64,000 nucleotides of DNA, taken from an uncultured Fibrobacterota bacterium. Lineage in GTDB: Bacteria > Fibrobacterota > Chitinivibrionia > Chitinivibrionales > FEN-1185. The position numbers and the translations under genes are program-made. Every line of letters starts with the position of its first letter. Within the stretch, counting starts at the first letter, position 1. The DNA lies in contig CAVWBU010000015.1 of the NCBI GenBank assembly GCA_963753345.1, positions 32,001 through 96,000 on the forward strand, in the 5' to 3' direction. The notes under the pieces are model-generated. The model did not search any database and was not told the origin of the DNA. It saw only the letters and a program-made list of their open reading frames with translations. Below, piece after piece: positions 24,736 to 63,178 of this stretch.

Positions 24736-24894
24736 ATGGGCGTTCCCCGCTCCCTCGACTCCGCTCGGGGGCGGGTCGGTCATCCCTGCGGGCTCGGCTG
24801 TTCGCCTCGTTGCCGGACCGCCCTAAGCCGTTGGCGCGGGTCGGCCGGCAATCCCGCTACGGCGGGACCGCTCCGGTCCCCCTAACGCGCGGCA
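24736..24894 (+). repeat. Family A structured repeat, copy A1
   Basis: ATGGGCGTTCCC...GGGTCGG...GGCTCGGCTGTTCGCCTCGTTGCCG...CGGCAAT...CTCCGGTCCCCCTAACGCGCGG. Confidence 0.9.
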
Positions 24895-24974
24895 GAAGAA
24901 ATCCCATCAGTCAATCTCATCTCTTGCGCCAGCCGAATTCTCATTAAGGAGATCAACGATCTTGCATGAATTTT

Positions 24975-25164
24975 TTCAACTCTTCAACTATTCAACGTTT
25001 CAACTGCTCCCCGTGGGTGCCCCCACAACCATGTATCGCGCTTGCCGCTGCACCATCAAGGGGTGCACCCTGGAGGGGGTAGCGGAGGACCAGACGCGCA
25101 TCTCCGGAATGCTGGTTTGCTAATATGCGCGGTCGGGCCGCAGCTAGGGGGATACATCCCCCAT
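24975..25164 (-). repeat. Family B structured repeat (B1) with GTTGAA tail
   Basis: Reverse complement closely matches 62851-63044, including the trailing 8-mer array. Confidence 0.88.
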
Positions 25165-25174
25165 AAAAGCTCTC

Positions 25175-26167
25175 TTATAGAAATTTACGCGGAAATTTCC
25201 TCCTGTAAACGATGTACTTAGTGAACGCATACGACGCCTTTGCCGCAAGGCTCATTAGCGTAAGGCGGCTGAATGCCGCCGTATACGAAGGGTCGAAGTA
25301 GCAGTTGATATGGCAGCCTTCGCAGAAAGGGTAGGAGCCCTGGCGCCGAATCGATTCGCCGCGGCCGGGATCACGCAAAGCTTCTGCCAGGGATTCACCG
25401 ACAGGCACGAATGCGGCGGCATGATGGAAACAGGGAAGCGCGATCCTGTTGTCGGGAAGCACCGCGATGGCGGAAGACGCCGCCCTGCACGGGCTTCGCG
25501 CGGTATGGTTGCCGCCGTCGGACCGGAGCGCAAGGTGCGCCCTGTTGAGATAAACACCCGGCTTGCGCGACCAGGCACGGGCCTTTTGGTGCGTTTCCCG
25601 GCTTGCGATGTCCTTTCCGTCGAGGGAAAACACAGGATCGAGGATGGCCATGAGTCTGTTGTTGCGCGCCAGCTCGTACACGCCCCGGAACGAGTCGATG
25701 TTCTCATTCGTGTAGGTAAAGAGCAGGTCCGGAACCAGATTGTTGGCGAGGGCGGCCGGGATGCTTTCGAGAACTTTGGAGTATGAATCGCAGCCGCGGA
25801 TCCTGTTGTGCAATGCGGCGGTGTCGGCATCAAGGCTGAAGTGAAGGAGGCCGACGAGCCCGGCAAGCTCGCGCGCGCGGTCGGGGAACAGGAGACAGTT
25901 GGTGGTGACCGAGGTGATGAATCCGAGGCGCAGGGCCGCGGCGCAAAACGCGGGAAGGTCCGGGTGGAGCAGCGGTTCCCCTCCTGTAAAGTCGACGAAA
26001 CGGCAGCCCGCGCGCCTGGCATCCGCGAGGTTTTGCAGAACCTGGGCGGGCTGCGCGTCGGCCTTGGGTTTGTCCTGCCAGATGGTGCAGAACGCGCAGG
26101 CCGCATTGCACCGGTTGGTCACAAAGTACTGGAGGAGGATCGGTCTCAGACGGCCCGCCCTTTCCAC
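25175..26167 (-). CDS. Radical SAM protein with C-terminal SPASM/twitch-like Cys cluster
   Basis: CNAACAFC (CxxxCxxC), 'FTGGEPLL', 'PC...CEGCHINC'. Confidence 0.88.
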   Translation of the reverse strand: MERAGRLRPILLQYFVTNRCNAACAFCTIWQDKPKADAQPAQVLQNLADARRAGCRFVDFTGGEPLLHPDLPAFCAAALRLGFITSVTTNCLLFPDRARELAGLVGLLHFSLDADTAALHNRIRGCDSYSKVLESIPAALANNLVPDLLFTYTNENIDSFRGVYELARNNRLMAILDPVFSLDGKDIASRETHQKARAWSRKPGVYLNRAHLALRSDGGNHTARSPCRAASSAIAVLPDNRIALPCFHHAAAFVPVGESLAEALRDPGRGESIRRQGSYPFCEGCHINCYFDPSYTAAFSRLTLMSLAAKASYAFTKYIVYRRKFPRKFL

Positions 26168-27276
26168 GCAACCTTGCGCGTGAACGGGATGACAAGCGCG
26201 AGCACGGCGGTTTCAAACAGCATGAACACAAAGTAAACAGGAAACAGGAGCGCGTTTTCGCTTGAGCAAGTCTTTCTGAACCCGACATGGACATAGGCGA
26301 TTGTCAGAAGAAAATTGAAAAAAGCGAGCATCGCCGCGGCGCCCGAAACAAAACCGGCCAGCCCTGCGACAAACGCGACATTCTGGAAGGTGAGCAGAAG
26401 ACCCGGCCAGAGCAGCGGCGAGCGGAAGGTAAAACCTCCCCGAGCCCACCGGAGAGCCTGGTGATAAAACCGCCCCGCGGTTTCACACGGGGAGGTGAAC
26501 GCCTGCGCCGAAAACGGCTCGGCAGGAACAATCTGCATCCTGCGGCGCCTGAAGGCGGCATACAGGTCGCGGTCCTCCACCATGCTGTAGCCAAGGCCAG
26601 CCTGGCCGCCGATGCCGTTGTACGCGTTTTTCCGCACCAGAAGGTTGTTGCCCATGCACGAGCCGCCGATGCCGGCGATGTGGAACGCGTAGGCGGTCGC
26701 GAAAAGAAATTCCAGCTGGAACCGCTGGACAAAAGAGAAAACGCCGCTGGTTTCTTCCATGAGTGCGGTGCGGCCGAACGTCATGTCGCCGCCGCGGGCC
26801 GCGTTTTTGGCCCAGGATGCAAGCCAATCCTCGGAAAACCGCATGTCGGCATCGCTGAACAGAAGCCATTCATGGTGGCTGCGGGCCGCACCGACGTCCA
26901 GCGCCTGCTGCTTGCCGGAGAGCCGGACGCGGGCATCGTACGCCGAGTCGGCAACGGAAATCGGCGCCGGGAACGCGCCGACGAACGGCTCCATTGATTT
27001 CCGGTAATCGTCGGAGGAGCCGTCGTTGACCAGTATCACTTCCCAGGCGCCGGCGTATTGCTGGGACGCAAGCGAGGCGAGAAGGCGTCCCAGATTGTGC
27101 GCCTCGTTGCGAAAAGGAATTATCACCGAGATGCCCGGCAGCGTTCCTGCGGGATCGGGCGGCGGCGCGCGGAGCGCGCGGTGCGCGGCAAGGCGGGCAA
27201 TGAGCCACACCAGCAGACCGGTGTAGGCCGCACACCCGGCGATAACGGCAAGATCTGTCACGGGAACGTCACTCAT
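26146..27276 (-). CDS. Membrane glycosyltransferase family 2
   Basis: 'SVIIPFRNE', 'VNDGSSD', 'FSDAD', 'VED', 'QALRWARG', TM helices at both ends. Confidence 0.88.
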   Translation of the reverse strand: MSDVPVTDLAVIAGCAAYTGLLVWLIARLAAHRALRAPPPDPAGTLPGISVIIPFRNEAHNLGRLLASLASQQYAGAWEVILVNDGSSDDYRKSMEPFVGAFPAPISVADSAYDARVRLSGKQQALDVGAARSHHEWLLFSDADMRFSEDWLASWAKNAARGGDMTFGRTALMEETSGVFSFVQRFQLEFLFATAYAFHIAGIGGSCMGNNLLVRKNAYNGIGGQAGLGYSMVEDRDLYAAFRRRRMQIVPAEPFSAQAFTSPCETAGRFYHQALRWARGGFTFRSPLLWPGLLLTFQNVAFVAGLAGFVSGAAAMLAFFNFLLTIAYVHVGFRKTCSSENALLFPVYFVFMLFETAVLALVIPFTRKVAWKGRAV

Positions 27277-62500: not shown

Positions 62501-62835
62501 TCAACGCCAAGGAAGTGCCCAAGATCGGCGAGGGCAAACCCGACATCATTGACCTCATCAAGGGCGACGACGTGGACCTTATCATCAACGTGGTGGCGGG
62601 ACGCAAGTCGCAGCTCGATTCGAAGCCGATACGCAGCGCTGCCGTGGTGCAGGGCGTTCCGTACATCACTACGCTCGAGGCGGCCCAGGCCGCGATCTCG
62701 GCACTCGACTCGCTGGAAAAGACCGGATTTTCAGTTAAGTCGATTCAGGAGTATGCGGCATCGTTGATAAAAGGCAACGACAAGGGGAATGGGGACGATA
62801 TCGGGTTCAAGAAGGCGGTGTGGAGCAAGGGATGA
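59548..62835 (+). CDS. carB: Carbamoyl-phosphate synthase large subunit
   Basis: 'MPKRTDI', '[10 protein letters not shown]', duplicated ATP-grasp domains, MGS domain. Confidence 0.98.
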
Positions 62836-62850
62836 GGAAGACATTGTCGA

Positions 62851-63044
62851 GTGGGGGAGGTCTCCCCTCGCTACGGCCCGGCCGCGCAGGTTTGCAAAGT
62901 AATATTCCGAATGTGCGCGTCCGGTCCTCCGCTACCCCCTCCTGGGTGGCCCCCTTGATGGCGCAGTGGCAAGCGCGACACATGGTTGTGGGGGCACCGA
63001 CGAAGAGCAGTTGAAAAGTTGAAACGTTGAATCGTTGAAACGTT
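62851..63044 (+). repeat. Family B repeat (B4) with GTTGAA tail
   Basis: Matches the reverse complement of 24975-25164. Confidence 0.88.
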
Positions 63045-63082
63045 CAAGAGATCGAGATTCGGAACTTTTCTTGTGGAGCAAT

Positions 63083-63178
63083 TGGCGGGAGACCCGGCCT
63101 CAAGGCATAGGGCGGGCGGCAACGAGGCGAATAGCCGGCCCGGAGGGAGACCGACCCCGCGAAGCGGGGGAACGCCCA
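63083..63178 (-). repeat. Family A repeat, truncated copy A12
   Basis: CGGCAACGAGGCGAATAGCC...GGAGACCGACCCC...GGAACGCCCA. Confidence 0.82.

Follow-up and report, generated by a model that had tools for sequence, protein, structure and literature searches.

A previously uncatalogued, hairpin-rich mosaic repeat family of about 150 bases in uncultured Fibrobacterota

Introduction

A 64,000-nucleotide stretch of DNA from an uncultured peat bacterium of the Fibrobacterota (hereafter the window) was initially annotated as carrying 12 dispersed multi-stem copies of a single element, which we call family A. The locus raises the question of whether these copies belong to a real repeat family, whether a fold is maintained in them, and whether they spread and act as DNA or as RNA. 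We report here that family A is a real, previously uncatalogued hairpin-rich repeat family of about 150 bases, and we weigh the explanations for its abundance.

Results

We searched the window with a covariance model built from 7 of the window copies and obtained exactly 12 matches, at the places where the initial annotation had put them, with starts 0 to 6 nt off except for copy 9. A copy is indeed present there, but the start given for it, 50454, was off because it takes in a 42-nt upstream module common to copies 3 and 4. Ten of the 12 are full copies (131–161 nt), one is internally deleted and one is truncated, and copies 2/3 and 6/7 form convergent pairs. The core copies are as follows.

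24738–24888, + strand: core copy 1, full, TT/AA terminal stem; 93.8 bits
34733–34882, + strand: core copy 2, full, 50 nt past the stop of a gene ending at 34683; 103 bits
35034–35164, − strand: core copy 3, full, CC/GG terminal stem, convergent with copy 2; 120.8 bits
40934–41066, − strand: core copy 4, full, CC/GG; 107.9 bits
44150–44310, + strand: core copy 5, full, first hairpin long
45313–45471, + strand: core copy 6, full, first hairpin long, directly 3' of a LexA-like gene
45587–45746, − strand: core copy 7, full, 5' start GGGACGTT, convergent with copy 6; model match 45587–45719
49167–49251, − strand: core copy 8, internal deletion between two CTGCC repeats, 85 nt; 46.8 bits
50496–50626, + strand: core copy 9, full, CC/GG
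53250–53385, − strand: core copy 10, full, CC/GG
57597–57748, + strand: core copy 11, full, 8 nt past a BioB-like gene
63089–63177, − strand: core copy 12, without the 3' third; 47.7 bits, model match 63040–63177

The core, about 131–161 nt long, begins with GGGCG and ends with CGC. A short terminal stem encloses five helices. One is a variable first hairpin and one, of 3–4 bp, adjoins the terminal stem; the others are a small GGC/GCC hairpin, a hairpin of 5–6 bp, and a long arm that is interrupted and has both a 5' internal loop and a bulged T, the latter conserved. The helices are connected by two conserved pyrimidine-rich joints, each CCyTCCrG, which form a direct repeat flanking the variable arms. 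Copies 1, 2, 5, 6, 7, 8, and 11 have GCGTT/AACGC as their terminal stem and copies 3, 4, 9, and 10 have GCGCC/GGCGC; both of the pair types first reported were thus seen, copy 7 having been omitted from the former list. The helix beside it reads GGT/ACC in copies 2, 5, and 7, GGC/GCC in copies 10 and 11, and GGCC/GGCC in copies 4 and 6; the proposed covariation between GGT/ACC and GGC/GCC is present, but the helix is mismatched in copies 1, 3, and 9. The original suggestion that selection acts on a fold rather than a sequence holds for the arms, which vary freely, but not for the unpaired frame, which is strongly conserved in sequence, across genera as well.

The cores usually lie beside further repeated modules.

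24889–24932 (approximate ends), + strand: 3' extension hairpin after copy 1, with a GCGGCA start, a conserved loop, and a GCGCCA end
34883–34926, + strand: extension hairpin after copy 2
about 45542–45586, − strand: extension hairpin after copy 7
about 49122–49166, − strand: extension hairpin after copy 8
about 53205–53249, − strand: extension hairpin after copy 10
24974–25150, + strand: downstream module C, about 140–180 nt, with a GC-rich hairpin at its end
62864–63040, − strand: module C after copy 12
40601–40688, − strand: module C after copy 4
49024–49111, − strand: module C after copy 8
53111–53172, − strand: 8-nt repeat array, TTCAACNN on the element's strand, between the extension hairpin and module C
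about 24970–25005, 34927–34950, and 62998–63067: further 8-nt repeat arrays
50452–50495, + strand: upstream module, common to copies 3, 4, and 9
about 35165–35210 and 41067–41110, both − strand: further copies of the upstream module

These modules follow a fixed order from core to extension hairpin, 8-nt array, and module C, and each also occurs alone, an arrangement of the BIME/BOX mosaic type. Genome-wide, 371 cores have an intact 3' end; the extension hairpin comes next in 231 of them and module C in 191. The extension hairpin is preceded by a core in 233 of 252 cases, and 78 of the 285 copies of module C stand without core or extension hairpin. Chimeric cores are also present in the genome. 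The consensus of module C has a terminal GC-rich hairpin followed by a T-rich stretch.

We used an HMM of the 12 window copies (nhmmer) to search the 4,516,072-base genome, G000, and found 389 matches at E<1e-3, 248 of them full length, a copy number far beyond chance. The core, with a mean length of 136 nt, occupies about 1.2% of the genome and is evenly spaced at about one copy per 11.6 kb. Within the genus, at least hundreds of copies were found in each of five of six species (G000, G001, G002, G004, and G005), while the sixth, G003, gave no matches. Across the order, matches occurred in 22 of 81 genomes in a patchy distribution of diverged, multi-copy sets, with five other genera having 9–23 matches each. 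The public metagenome-assembled genomes that carry the element have titles naming Chitinivibrionales or Fibrobacterota, in agreement with the initial guess at the lineage. Ten pattern-match loci outside Fibrobacterota were attributed to chance (4 of the 10 had any model match, at ≤16.3 bits and E≥0.27), and plasmid and phage collections held no family A match.

A match to an existing Rfam family could have removed the novelty of the element. With cmscan, no family in Rfam 15 matched anywhere in the window at the gathering score, and at E≤10 the region 24600–63400 gave two weak, unrelated matches, neither on an element. The likeness to the Bacteroidota motif Flavo-1 that had been proposed was not borne out at either threshold. 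A search of the literature on the lineage and repeats, and on Fibrobacteres with MITE or REP, found no description of the element, supplements lying outside its scope.

By home-made and crude gene calls (2,830 genes, 74.6% coding), 362 of the 389 copies overlap genes by at most 30%, and the copies are intergenic. The two strands carry 188 (+) and 201 (−) copies. Where the 5' neighbor gene is co-oriented, as it is for 195 copies, the element begins a median of 44 nt past its stop codon, and the same layout, at 38 nt, was seen in another genus. Such placement favors a reading of the copies as cis-acting structured RNAs in untranslated regions, transcribed by read-through, that would stabilize, process, or end the mRNA in the manner of REP, ERIC, and SPRITE and be kept for serving their neighbors; the hairpin and T-rich stretch of the module C consensus point the same way. 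We judge this reading unlikely. Orientation is untied to transcription, with 188 copies opposed to their 5' neighbor and, between tandem genes, 119 opposed versus 73 co-oriented. There is no conserved promoter upstream of the core, where information is about zero beyond 12–15 nt, and terminator-like sites in the interval 44000–63900 are not enriched (29 found versus 22.7±4.5 expected). Nor does the core resemble an intrinsic terminator, as no T run follows it and the single weak site that touches a core lies at the 5' end of copy 5.

The lack of a conserved promoter also speaks against independent non-coding RNA genes, each its own transcription unit of about 150–470 nt, acting in trans or guiding a mobile system. 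In their favor are the five-helix fold, the conserved frame, and the order-wide covariation of family A, and the end of the composite in a hairpin and a T-rich stretch. The hundreds of divergent copies, deleted and chimeric forms included, are nevertheless difficult to reconcile with such genes, as are the low-copy genomes, in which the copies have ordinary genes as neighbors and no associated protein gene beside them. We consider this explanation very improbable.

We also observed a mild bias against the leading strand, both by GC skew (158 versus 108, p = 0.0026) and by local gene strand (98 versus 59, p = 0.0023). Together with the even, intergenic spacing, the BIME-like mosaic of modules, and the direct repeat formed by the joints around the variable arms, this bias is consistent with a host-recruited DNA site, folded or double-stranded, to which a chromosomal protein would bind (for example a recombinase, gyrase, or a nucleoid protein), in the way described for E. 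coli BIMEs, with the CCyTCCrG joints as putative binding sites. That G003 and 59 of the 81 genomes of the order are without the element, and that no partner protein was identified, makes this a quite unlikely explanation, somewhat less probable than an RNA of untranslated regions.

Strong covariation was seen among the copies of this genome, and likewise in sister species and other genera. Scored on a cruder 32-pair structure, whose helices 3–5 are doubtful, and in model-fitted alignments, which are biased towards the structure, 124 copies of G000 had 467 cells changed on both sides, compared to 175.6±9.0 in shuffles, with both-sided change at 20 of the 32 pairs. In the same copies 90.9% of cells were paired versus 79.2% when shuffled (0 of 500 shuffles was as high), and slid controls were 35.8–51.7% paired. 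On that structure, 43 copies from other genera were 82.7% paired versus 61.8%, with both-sided change at 25 of 32 pairs and, at one position of the terminal stem, four types of pair. The initial proposal, that a structured element has multiplied and become dispersed through the genome, is supported both by these double changes and by the 389 matches.

The 32-pair structure was used because a 46-pair structure, drawn by hand on 20 copies aligned with MAFFT, had its arm subtypes misaligned (27–45 of 46 pairs per row) and no model was built from it. A structure derived from the data by dynamic programming was discarded because it paired invariant G/C columns spuriously. Two gapless subgroups (18 and 14 rows) were 100% paired, a circular result because the rows had been chosen for one identical predicted fold; the information in them lies solely in the 5 and 8 pairs that changed on both sides.

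Covariation was also expected to survive a control for kinship, and it did. In nearest-neighbor contrasts there were 68, 45, and 33 double changes, compared to 13.6, 12.1, and 9.6 expected if the two sides were independent, and 48, 33, and 25 of them, respectively, stayed canonical. Part of the both-sided change reflects whole arms exchanged between copies, not only stepwise compensation. The long arm folds at −29.5 kcal/mol with its own 3' half and at −23.2 kcal/mol with the 3' half of a random other copy. Between nearest copies in the genus, paired sites differed about half as often as unpaired sites (0.072 versus 0.143, and 0.093 versus 0.184). This slower change and the conservation of the frame across the order are points in favor of an RNA of untranslated regions, and would also fit a host function.

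With regard to which strand acts, mean arm energies were −38.18 and −38.26 for the two strands, and single-copy z-scores ranged from −1.0 to −2.6 on either strand. Pair cells comprised 4264 Watson-Crick, 79 G-T, and 105 A-C; in the four well-supported helices over three alignments, G-T numbered 75 and A-C 54. Because the two strands are matched in how well they fold, and wobble pairs are few and symmetrically distributed, nothing here points to RNA specifically. The equal strand energies, and the lack of an excess of G-U over A-C mispairs, count against an RNA of untranslated regions, and the symmetric wobble statistics against non-coding RNA genes; strand symmetry suits a host DNA site.

We compared G000 with G001, whose genes are 83–91% identical, at 10 sites with both flanks matched. 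An aligned copy is kept at 2 of these sites; 2 others hold a copy of matching orientation that does not align, 4 hold an inverted copy, and G000 lacks a copy at the remaining 2. Copy 6 is absent from its orthologous site in G001, the site of copy 5 holds a copy of the other subtype there, and that of copy 11 holds one in the opposite orientation; the site of copy 9 is occupied in G004 and G005 too. Against G002, G004, and G005, presence likewise varies from one site to the next, and at one site in G002 two genes abut. The 4 inverted sites are a further argument against RNAs serving their neighboring genes, and site-by-site turnover between close relatives speaks against fixed chromosomal roles for a host DNA site.

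The two aligned orthologous pairs, 77–79% identical and with modules swapped, are too few for a stem-versus-loop comparison. Copy 10 differs from its G001 orthologue at 11 of 136 positions, of which 8 are unpaired, one is a T-G to T-A change, and 2 fall at one helix-end pair. The differences fall mainly outside the pairs, a hint of constraint after insertion and a point in favor of an RNA of untranslated regions.

Empty orthologous sites in relatives had been suggested as a check on mobility. Occupancy does differ, but no precise empty site was recovered in the spacers of 75–80%-identical species or at the G000/G001 sites. At the copy-10 site the G002 and G004 spacers could not be aligned with that of G000, and the single gap that G000 shows at a matched site is wider than the element. 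Metagenome contigs of four DNA runs over 40800–58200 break at the repeats, depth rises 10–30 fold in the bins that contain elements, and none of the contigs spans an empty site, a result that is neutral as to excision. One fragmented relative consists of 570 contigs, many with the element at a contig end.

Finally, we looked for traces of a mobilizing system. No target-site duplication was detected when own and other flanks were compared (10-mers, 84 offset pairs, 172 copies, best z 1.8). The terminal complement is 5 bp (GCGTT/AACGC or GCGCC/GGCGC), at most 7 with the outer G's, so the terminal inverted repeats of at least 10 bp that mark a classical MITE are absent. For a long-range pairing between the extension hairpin and the A-rich 5' flank, there was likewise no own-versus-other signal. 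No Y1 transposase (PF01797) was found in G000 (94% complete) or G001 (73% complete), and no TnpB-type domain (PF07282) or reverse transcriptase in G000; an IS200/IS605-derived element would be expected to have PF01797 or PF07282 in its genome, and subterminal hairpins resembling those of the IS. A model search with filters off, by which alone the ends of IS200-like copies in G002 were compared, found no element within about 1.5 kb of the Y1 genes of G002, G004, G005, and G018. Among 5'-only and 3'-only halves 0–8 kb apart there was one pair, with a 102-nt gap and not around an ORF, in binned assemblies of a kind that often loses IS copies.

Discussion

We see about an even chance that family A is a mosaic repeat of the MITE/BIME/bcr1 kind, non-autonomous and dependent on its structure. 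Copies would multiply and be replaced in intergenic gaps by a DNA-level process, consisting of insertion by a putative trans-acting enzyme together with arm exchange between copies by ectopic recombination. The fold would be needed for this spread. The recognized feature may be the conserved frame displayed on a folded single strand, in which case the arms could take any self-complementary sequence.

Several known systems invite comparison. BIMEs of E. coli are built of REP palindromes of about 35 nt and have an associated RAYT gene. Like BIMEs and BOX, family A combines intergenic modules in fixed order and orientation, and has them alone as well; it differs from BIMEs in its core of about 150 nt with five helices and in the absence of a Y1 transposase from G000. 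BOX of Streptococcus pneumoniae appears, in the part of PMC3184786 devoted to it, as a mosaic intergenic repeat that an IS is thought to move, and family A has no visible IS partner of that sort.

A precedent is bcr1 of the Bacillus cereus group, which the relevant part of PMC3184786 describes as a non-autonomous element of about 155 bp, unevenly distributed among strains, with stems kept by compensatory changes, flanking direct repeats of 5 bp, two stem-loops drawn, and transcription. Family A is of about the same size, intergenic, non-autonomous, uneven among relatives in its placement, and compensated in its stems; as far as that description goes, it differs in having no flanking repeats, five helices, and a core joined to modules, and no relation in sequence would be expected. 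Classical MITEs, as outlined in the same source, have long terminal inverted repeats, target duplications, and often a matching parent IS. Family A shares with Correia/nemis, RUP, ERIC, and Nezha a length in the range of 100–250 bp, high copy number, intergenic location, a predicted RNA or DNA fold, and variable occupancy (PMC3184786, in part), but its terminal complement is 5–7 bp, with no duplication and no parent found.

In the portions of PMC3337134 and PMC3116915 that concern them, REPs are 20–40 nt, a REPIN is two REPs, and a single-copy RAYT gene is flanked by REPs. Those accounts share with family A GC-rich intergenic palindromes without target duplication, believed to move in the form of folded single strands, and convergent pairs occur in family A too; family A differs in its 131–161 nt, its five helices, and the lack of an element-flanked Y1 (RAYT) gene. 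Flavo-1 is alike in its many copies per genome within the Fibrobacterota-Chlorobiota-Bacteroidota group, but no Rfam model matches any family A copy.

A bolder proposal, which we offer tentatively and hold to be improbable, is that the conserved frame (GGGCG, the two CCyTCCrG joints, the bulged T, and the CGC end) is the scaffold of an undescribed structure-specific system. This could be a mobilization machinery without terminal repeats, target duplication, or any of the searched transposases, or else a large class of functional RNA that multiplies. It would have persisted across the order while its arms turned over, the fold and the joints alone serving as its "gene".

About 1.2% of the genome consists of the core by itself, partner modules not counted, and metagenome assemblies break at the element in hundreds of places; the description applies to several uncultured Fibrobacterota of peat and sediment. 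With a covariance model for family A, annotation would improve, spurious ORF calls in these GC-rich spacers would be prevented, and the lineage would gain a strain-typing marker. With hundreds of paralogues and order-wide relatives in which five helices are kept and the arms replaced, family A is a natural experiment on folds. It also poses, in testable form, the question of how small repeats spread when they have neither terminal repeats nor target duplications and no transposase is visible, and whether they act as DNA or RNA.

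Copies in the window and architecture of the core

Family A is a real, abundant and structured repeat. R1, a covariance model made from seven window copies out of the twelve, gave exactly 12 matches in the 64-kb window, each where the initial annotation had placed a copy, and 10 of the 12 are full length (131-161 nt). Copy 9 lies in the place noted, but its proposed start took in a 42-nt upstream module that is common to copies 3, 4 and 9. More generally, the unit extends past the annotated borders and carries further modules. As described earlier, the terminal stem of the window copies is either GCGTT/AACGC or GCGCC/GGCGC, and the helix beside it is GGT/ACC or GGC/GCC. 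Two copies are incomplete.

49167-49251, minus strand: copy 8, middle deleted between two CTGCC repeats
63089-63177, minus strand: copy 12, without the 3' third

Predicted folds of single copies and a survey of the arms led to one and the same architecture.

Predicted parts of the family A core
Terminal stem: 5 bp
First hairpin: perfect (short or long) or of a weaker kind, 'CTCGAC'
Helix beside the terminal stem: 3-4 bp
First joint: pyrimidine-rich
Small hairpin: GGC/GCC
Long arm, base: stem of 6-8 bp with an optional 5' bulge
Long arm, middle: 3 + 3-4 bp around a conserved bulged T, with a 3-4-nt 5' internal loop
Long arm, tip: apical stem-loop
Last hairpin: 5-6 bp, degenerate in one subtype
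Second joint: pyrimidine-rich

The two joints, unpaired stretches that link the helices, both read CCyTCCrG and form a direct repeat. The long arm and last hairpin together occur as 185 different sequences among 192 aligned copies, and arm types and end types occur in free combination. Match columns 35 (5' joint) and 124 (3' joint) of alignment A5 covary (T-A 58, C-G 47, 97% canonical), which could be a 2-bp long-range helix or could instead mean that the two direct-repeat joints change in concert.

Covariation

We counted covariation in model-fitted alignments under a 32-pair structure, of which helices 3-5 are doubtful. Among 124 copies from the source genome, 90.9% of cells were paired, versus 79.2% in shuffled alignments (0 of 500 shuffles reached the observed value) and 35.8-51.7% when partners were slid; both-sided changes, which whole-arm exchange between copies also produces, numbered 467 cells versus 175.6 +/- 9.0 in shuffles. 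For other genera of the order (43 copies), paired cells made up 82.7% versus 61.8% and both-sided changes numbered 231 versus 78.7 +/- 6.9, with such change in 25 of the 32 pairs and U-A, C-G, A-U and G-C all present at one terminal-stem position.

As a rough correction for relatedness, each copy was paired once with its nearest neighbour, yielding 60, 32 and 16 contrasts. Double changes numbered 68, 45 and 33, versus 13.6, 12.1 and 9.6 expected for independent sides, and the canonical pair was kept in 48, 33 and 25 of them. Differences per site were 0.072 versus 0.143, 0.093 versus 0.184 and 0.129 versus 0.182 for paired versus unpaired sites. The same contrasts held 93, 58 and 26 one-sided breaks, and therefore either the copies decay or the crude structure includes wrong pairs. 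Two gapless subgroups, with rows picked for one identical predicted fold, showed both-sided change at 5 and 8 pairs, and a foreign 3' half costs the long arm 6.3 kcal/mol on average.

Abundance and genomic setting

An HMM of the twelve window copies found 389 matches at E<1e-3 in the source assembly (4,516,072 bases, 55 contigs, 55.9% G+C), 248 of them full length. They are divided between the strands (188 plus, 201 minus) with a mean length of 136 nt, the core alone makes up about 1.2% of the genome, and the window is its densest stretch. Judged against genes from a home-made caller (2,830 genes, 74.6% coding), overlap with a called gene is no more than 30% for 362 of the 389 copies. Neighbours in the window are ordinary chromosomal genes (GH2, LexA-like, DnaE2-like, Y-family polymerase, BioB-like, CarB). 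That the unit, with its downstream modules, is larger than the core accounts for two distances: the 5' end of the core lies close to a gene, at a median of 44 nt past the stop if the gene is co-oriented (n=195) or 115 nt away if it diverges (n=188), and the 3' side lies 300-375 nt from the next gene.

The LexA-like, DnaE2-like and Y-family (ImuB-like) polymerase genes stand in a row at 44403-50489 that looks like an SOS mutagenesis cassette, with family A copies in every one of its spacers. Elsewhere in the window, six tandem 264-nt repeats (1221-2840; 67-88% identical to the reference copy) sit within a very large open frame, 1-5505 (>1,834 aa), which looks like a repetitive giant protein.

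A larger unit in a mosaic of repeats

Upstream of the core is a conserved, A-rich dozen bases, and conservation ends 0-20 nt before GGGCG; the downstream border is multimodal. Among the 371 cores whose 3' end is intact, an extension hairpin (45-60 nt, conserved loop) follows directly in 231, and a same-strand module C (140 nt) lies within 400 nt downstream in 191, usually preceded by an array of 8-nt repeats. A core stands in front of 233 of the 252 extension hairpins in the genome, and 78 of the 285 module C copies have neither core nor extension in front. Module C is a second repeat family, about 140 nt long, whose stem is GGTGCCCCC...GGGGG..ACC and which ends in a GC-rich hairpin.

24974-25150, plus strand: module C
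62864-63040, minus strand: module C
40601-40688, minus strand: module C
49024-49111, minus strand: module C
6551-6644, 14370-14415, 44419-44464, 53111-53172, 62998-63067: arrays of 8-nt repeats

The arrays, of AGTTGAGA / TTCAACNN type, typically lie between extension hairpin and module C and occur elsewhere too. Another dispersed hairpin module, CCCCTCTCC-loop-GGAGAGGGG with GACCTCACCCC before it, recurs upstream of solitary module C. Chimeric cores also exist, in which other repeat modules replace the 5' half; this hairpin module and 5'-half replacements are found on contigs C21, C41, C16 and C19. Several repeat families together make a patchwork of this genome's spacers.

Distribution

R1 gave at least 80 matches each in the source genome and in four of the five other species of its genus. 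It gave none in the fifth, G003 (99% complete), and none in two further genera of the same family. One genome per species was scanned for the exact pattern, which gave at least 54 stretches; among the matches listed, 44 of 54 fell in three MAGs whose titles read Chitinivibrionales, Fibrobacterota or Fibrobacteres. The remaining 10 listed were single matches in other phyla, and the covariance model rejected them. Other families of the order also gave weak, full-length matches, which have the frame of conserved unpaired sequence in common but not the arms. R2, a broader model, was run on 81 genomes of the order and matched in 22, the source genome included; when 150 candidates per genome were scored, five other genera yielded 23, 18, 12, 12 and 9 matches. 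At three low-copy loci the called neighbours with a Pfam match were again ordinary genes, and plasmid and phage collections held no match.

Turnover between relatives

We compared sites with G001, a species of the same genus whose genes are 83-91% identical. At the 10 sites with both flanks matched (18 sites without a two-flank match and 6 with flanks too short were left out), an aligned copy was present in 2, a non-aligning copy of the same orientation in 2, a copy of opposite orientation in 4, and no source-genome copy in 2. After the BioB-like gene, copy 11 is on the plus strand, and G001 has a family A copy on the minus strand with different partner modules, between flanks more than 90% identical. 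After the LexA-like gene, the place of copies 6 and 7 in the source genome, copy 6 is missing from G001, whose minus strand carries module C, 8-nt array and extension, with a GC stub alone in place of the core. At the site of copy 5, the copy in G001 belongs to the other end-and-arm subtype. Copy 10 is kept with 11 differences in 136 nt: 8 at unpaired places, one T-G to T-A, and 2 on one helix-end pair. Against G002, G004 and G005, congeneric species 75-80% identical, differences in presence, completeness or orientation were seen at four sites, and at one site the genes abut in G002. Family A behaves as a non-autonomous mosaic repeat.

Mobilisation and strand

No Y1 transposase, TnpB-type domain or reverse transcriptase was found in the source genome; this absence is weak evidence because binned assemblies lose IS copies. 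Y1 genes are present in G002, G004, G005 and a further genome, G018, and at the four loci inspected no family A lies nearer than about 1.5 kb. The 8 Y1 matches of G002 include six identical 144-aa copies. This IS200-like ORF (G002:C5:144714-148076 and five more places) is absent from the source genome and G001 and does not adjoin family A copies. For family A itself, we found no flank duplication, long terminal repeats or copy split around an ORF.

Nothing in the family A data singles out either strand. Arm folding energy was -38.18 kcal/mol on the element strand and -38.26 on the opposite strand, and single-copy folding z-scores ranged from -1.0 to -2.6 for each of the two. Counting cells that pair on either strand gave 4264 Watson-Crick, 79 G-T and 105 A-C; in four well-supported helices the G-T/A-C counts were 39/28, 27/12 and 9/14 in three alignments, numbers to be read with the G-U-favouring scoring of the covariance model in mind. 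A cis-acting RNA role, with the fold working in transcripts, seems unlikely to us. Orientation is not bound to the transcription of neighbours, the 5' neighbour being co-oriented in 195 cases and opposed in 188; there were mild excesses of opposed copies between tandem genes (119 versus 73), against the local gene strand (98 versus 59, p 0.0023) and against the GC-skew leading strand (158 versus 108, p 0.0026). Aligned upstream flanks held no conserved promoter, and a scan of 44000-63900 showed no enrichment of terminator-like sites. That the copies are independent RNA genes is very improbable.

We give about even credence to structure-dependent spread at the DNA level, for example with the fold working as single-stranded DNA. 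A protein-binding DNA site of the host is doubtful, slightly more so than the role in transcripts. Family A differs from REP/RAYT elements and from classical MITEs in the features that define each. Of the repeats described so far, the closest in kind is bcr1, about 155 bp long and unevenly placed, with stems kept by compensatory changes (PMC3184786). Family A has no match in Rfam, and a search of the literature on this lineage, supplements excepted, found no description of it. Neither R1 nor R2 detects a copy in G003, against 80 or more in each of four sister species, and this species set against its sisters offers a natural contrast for finding a candidate partner gene.
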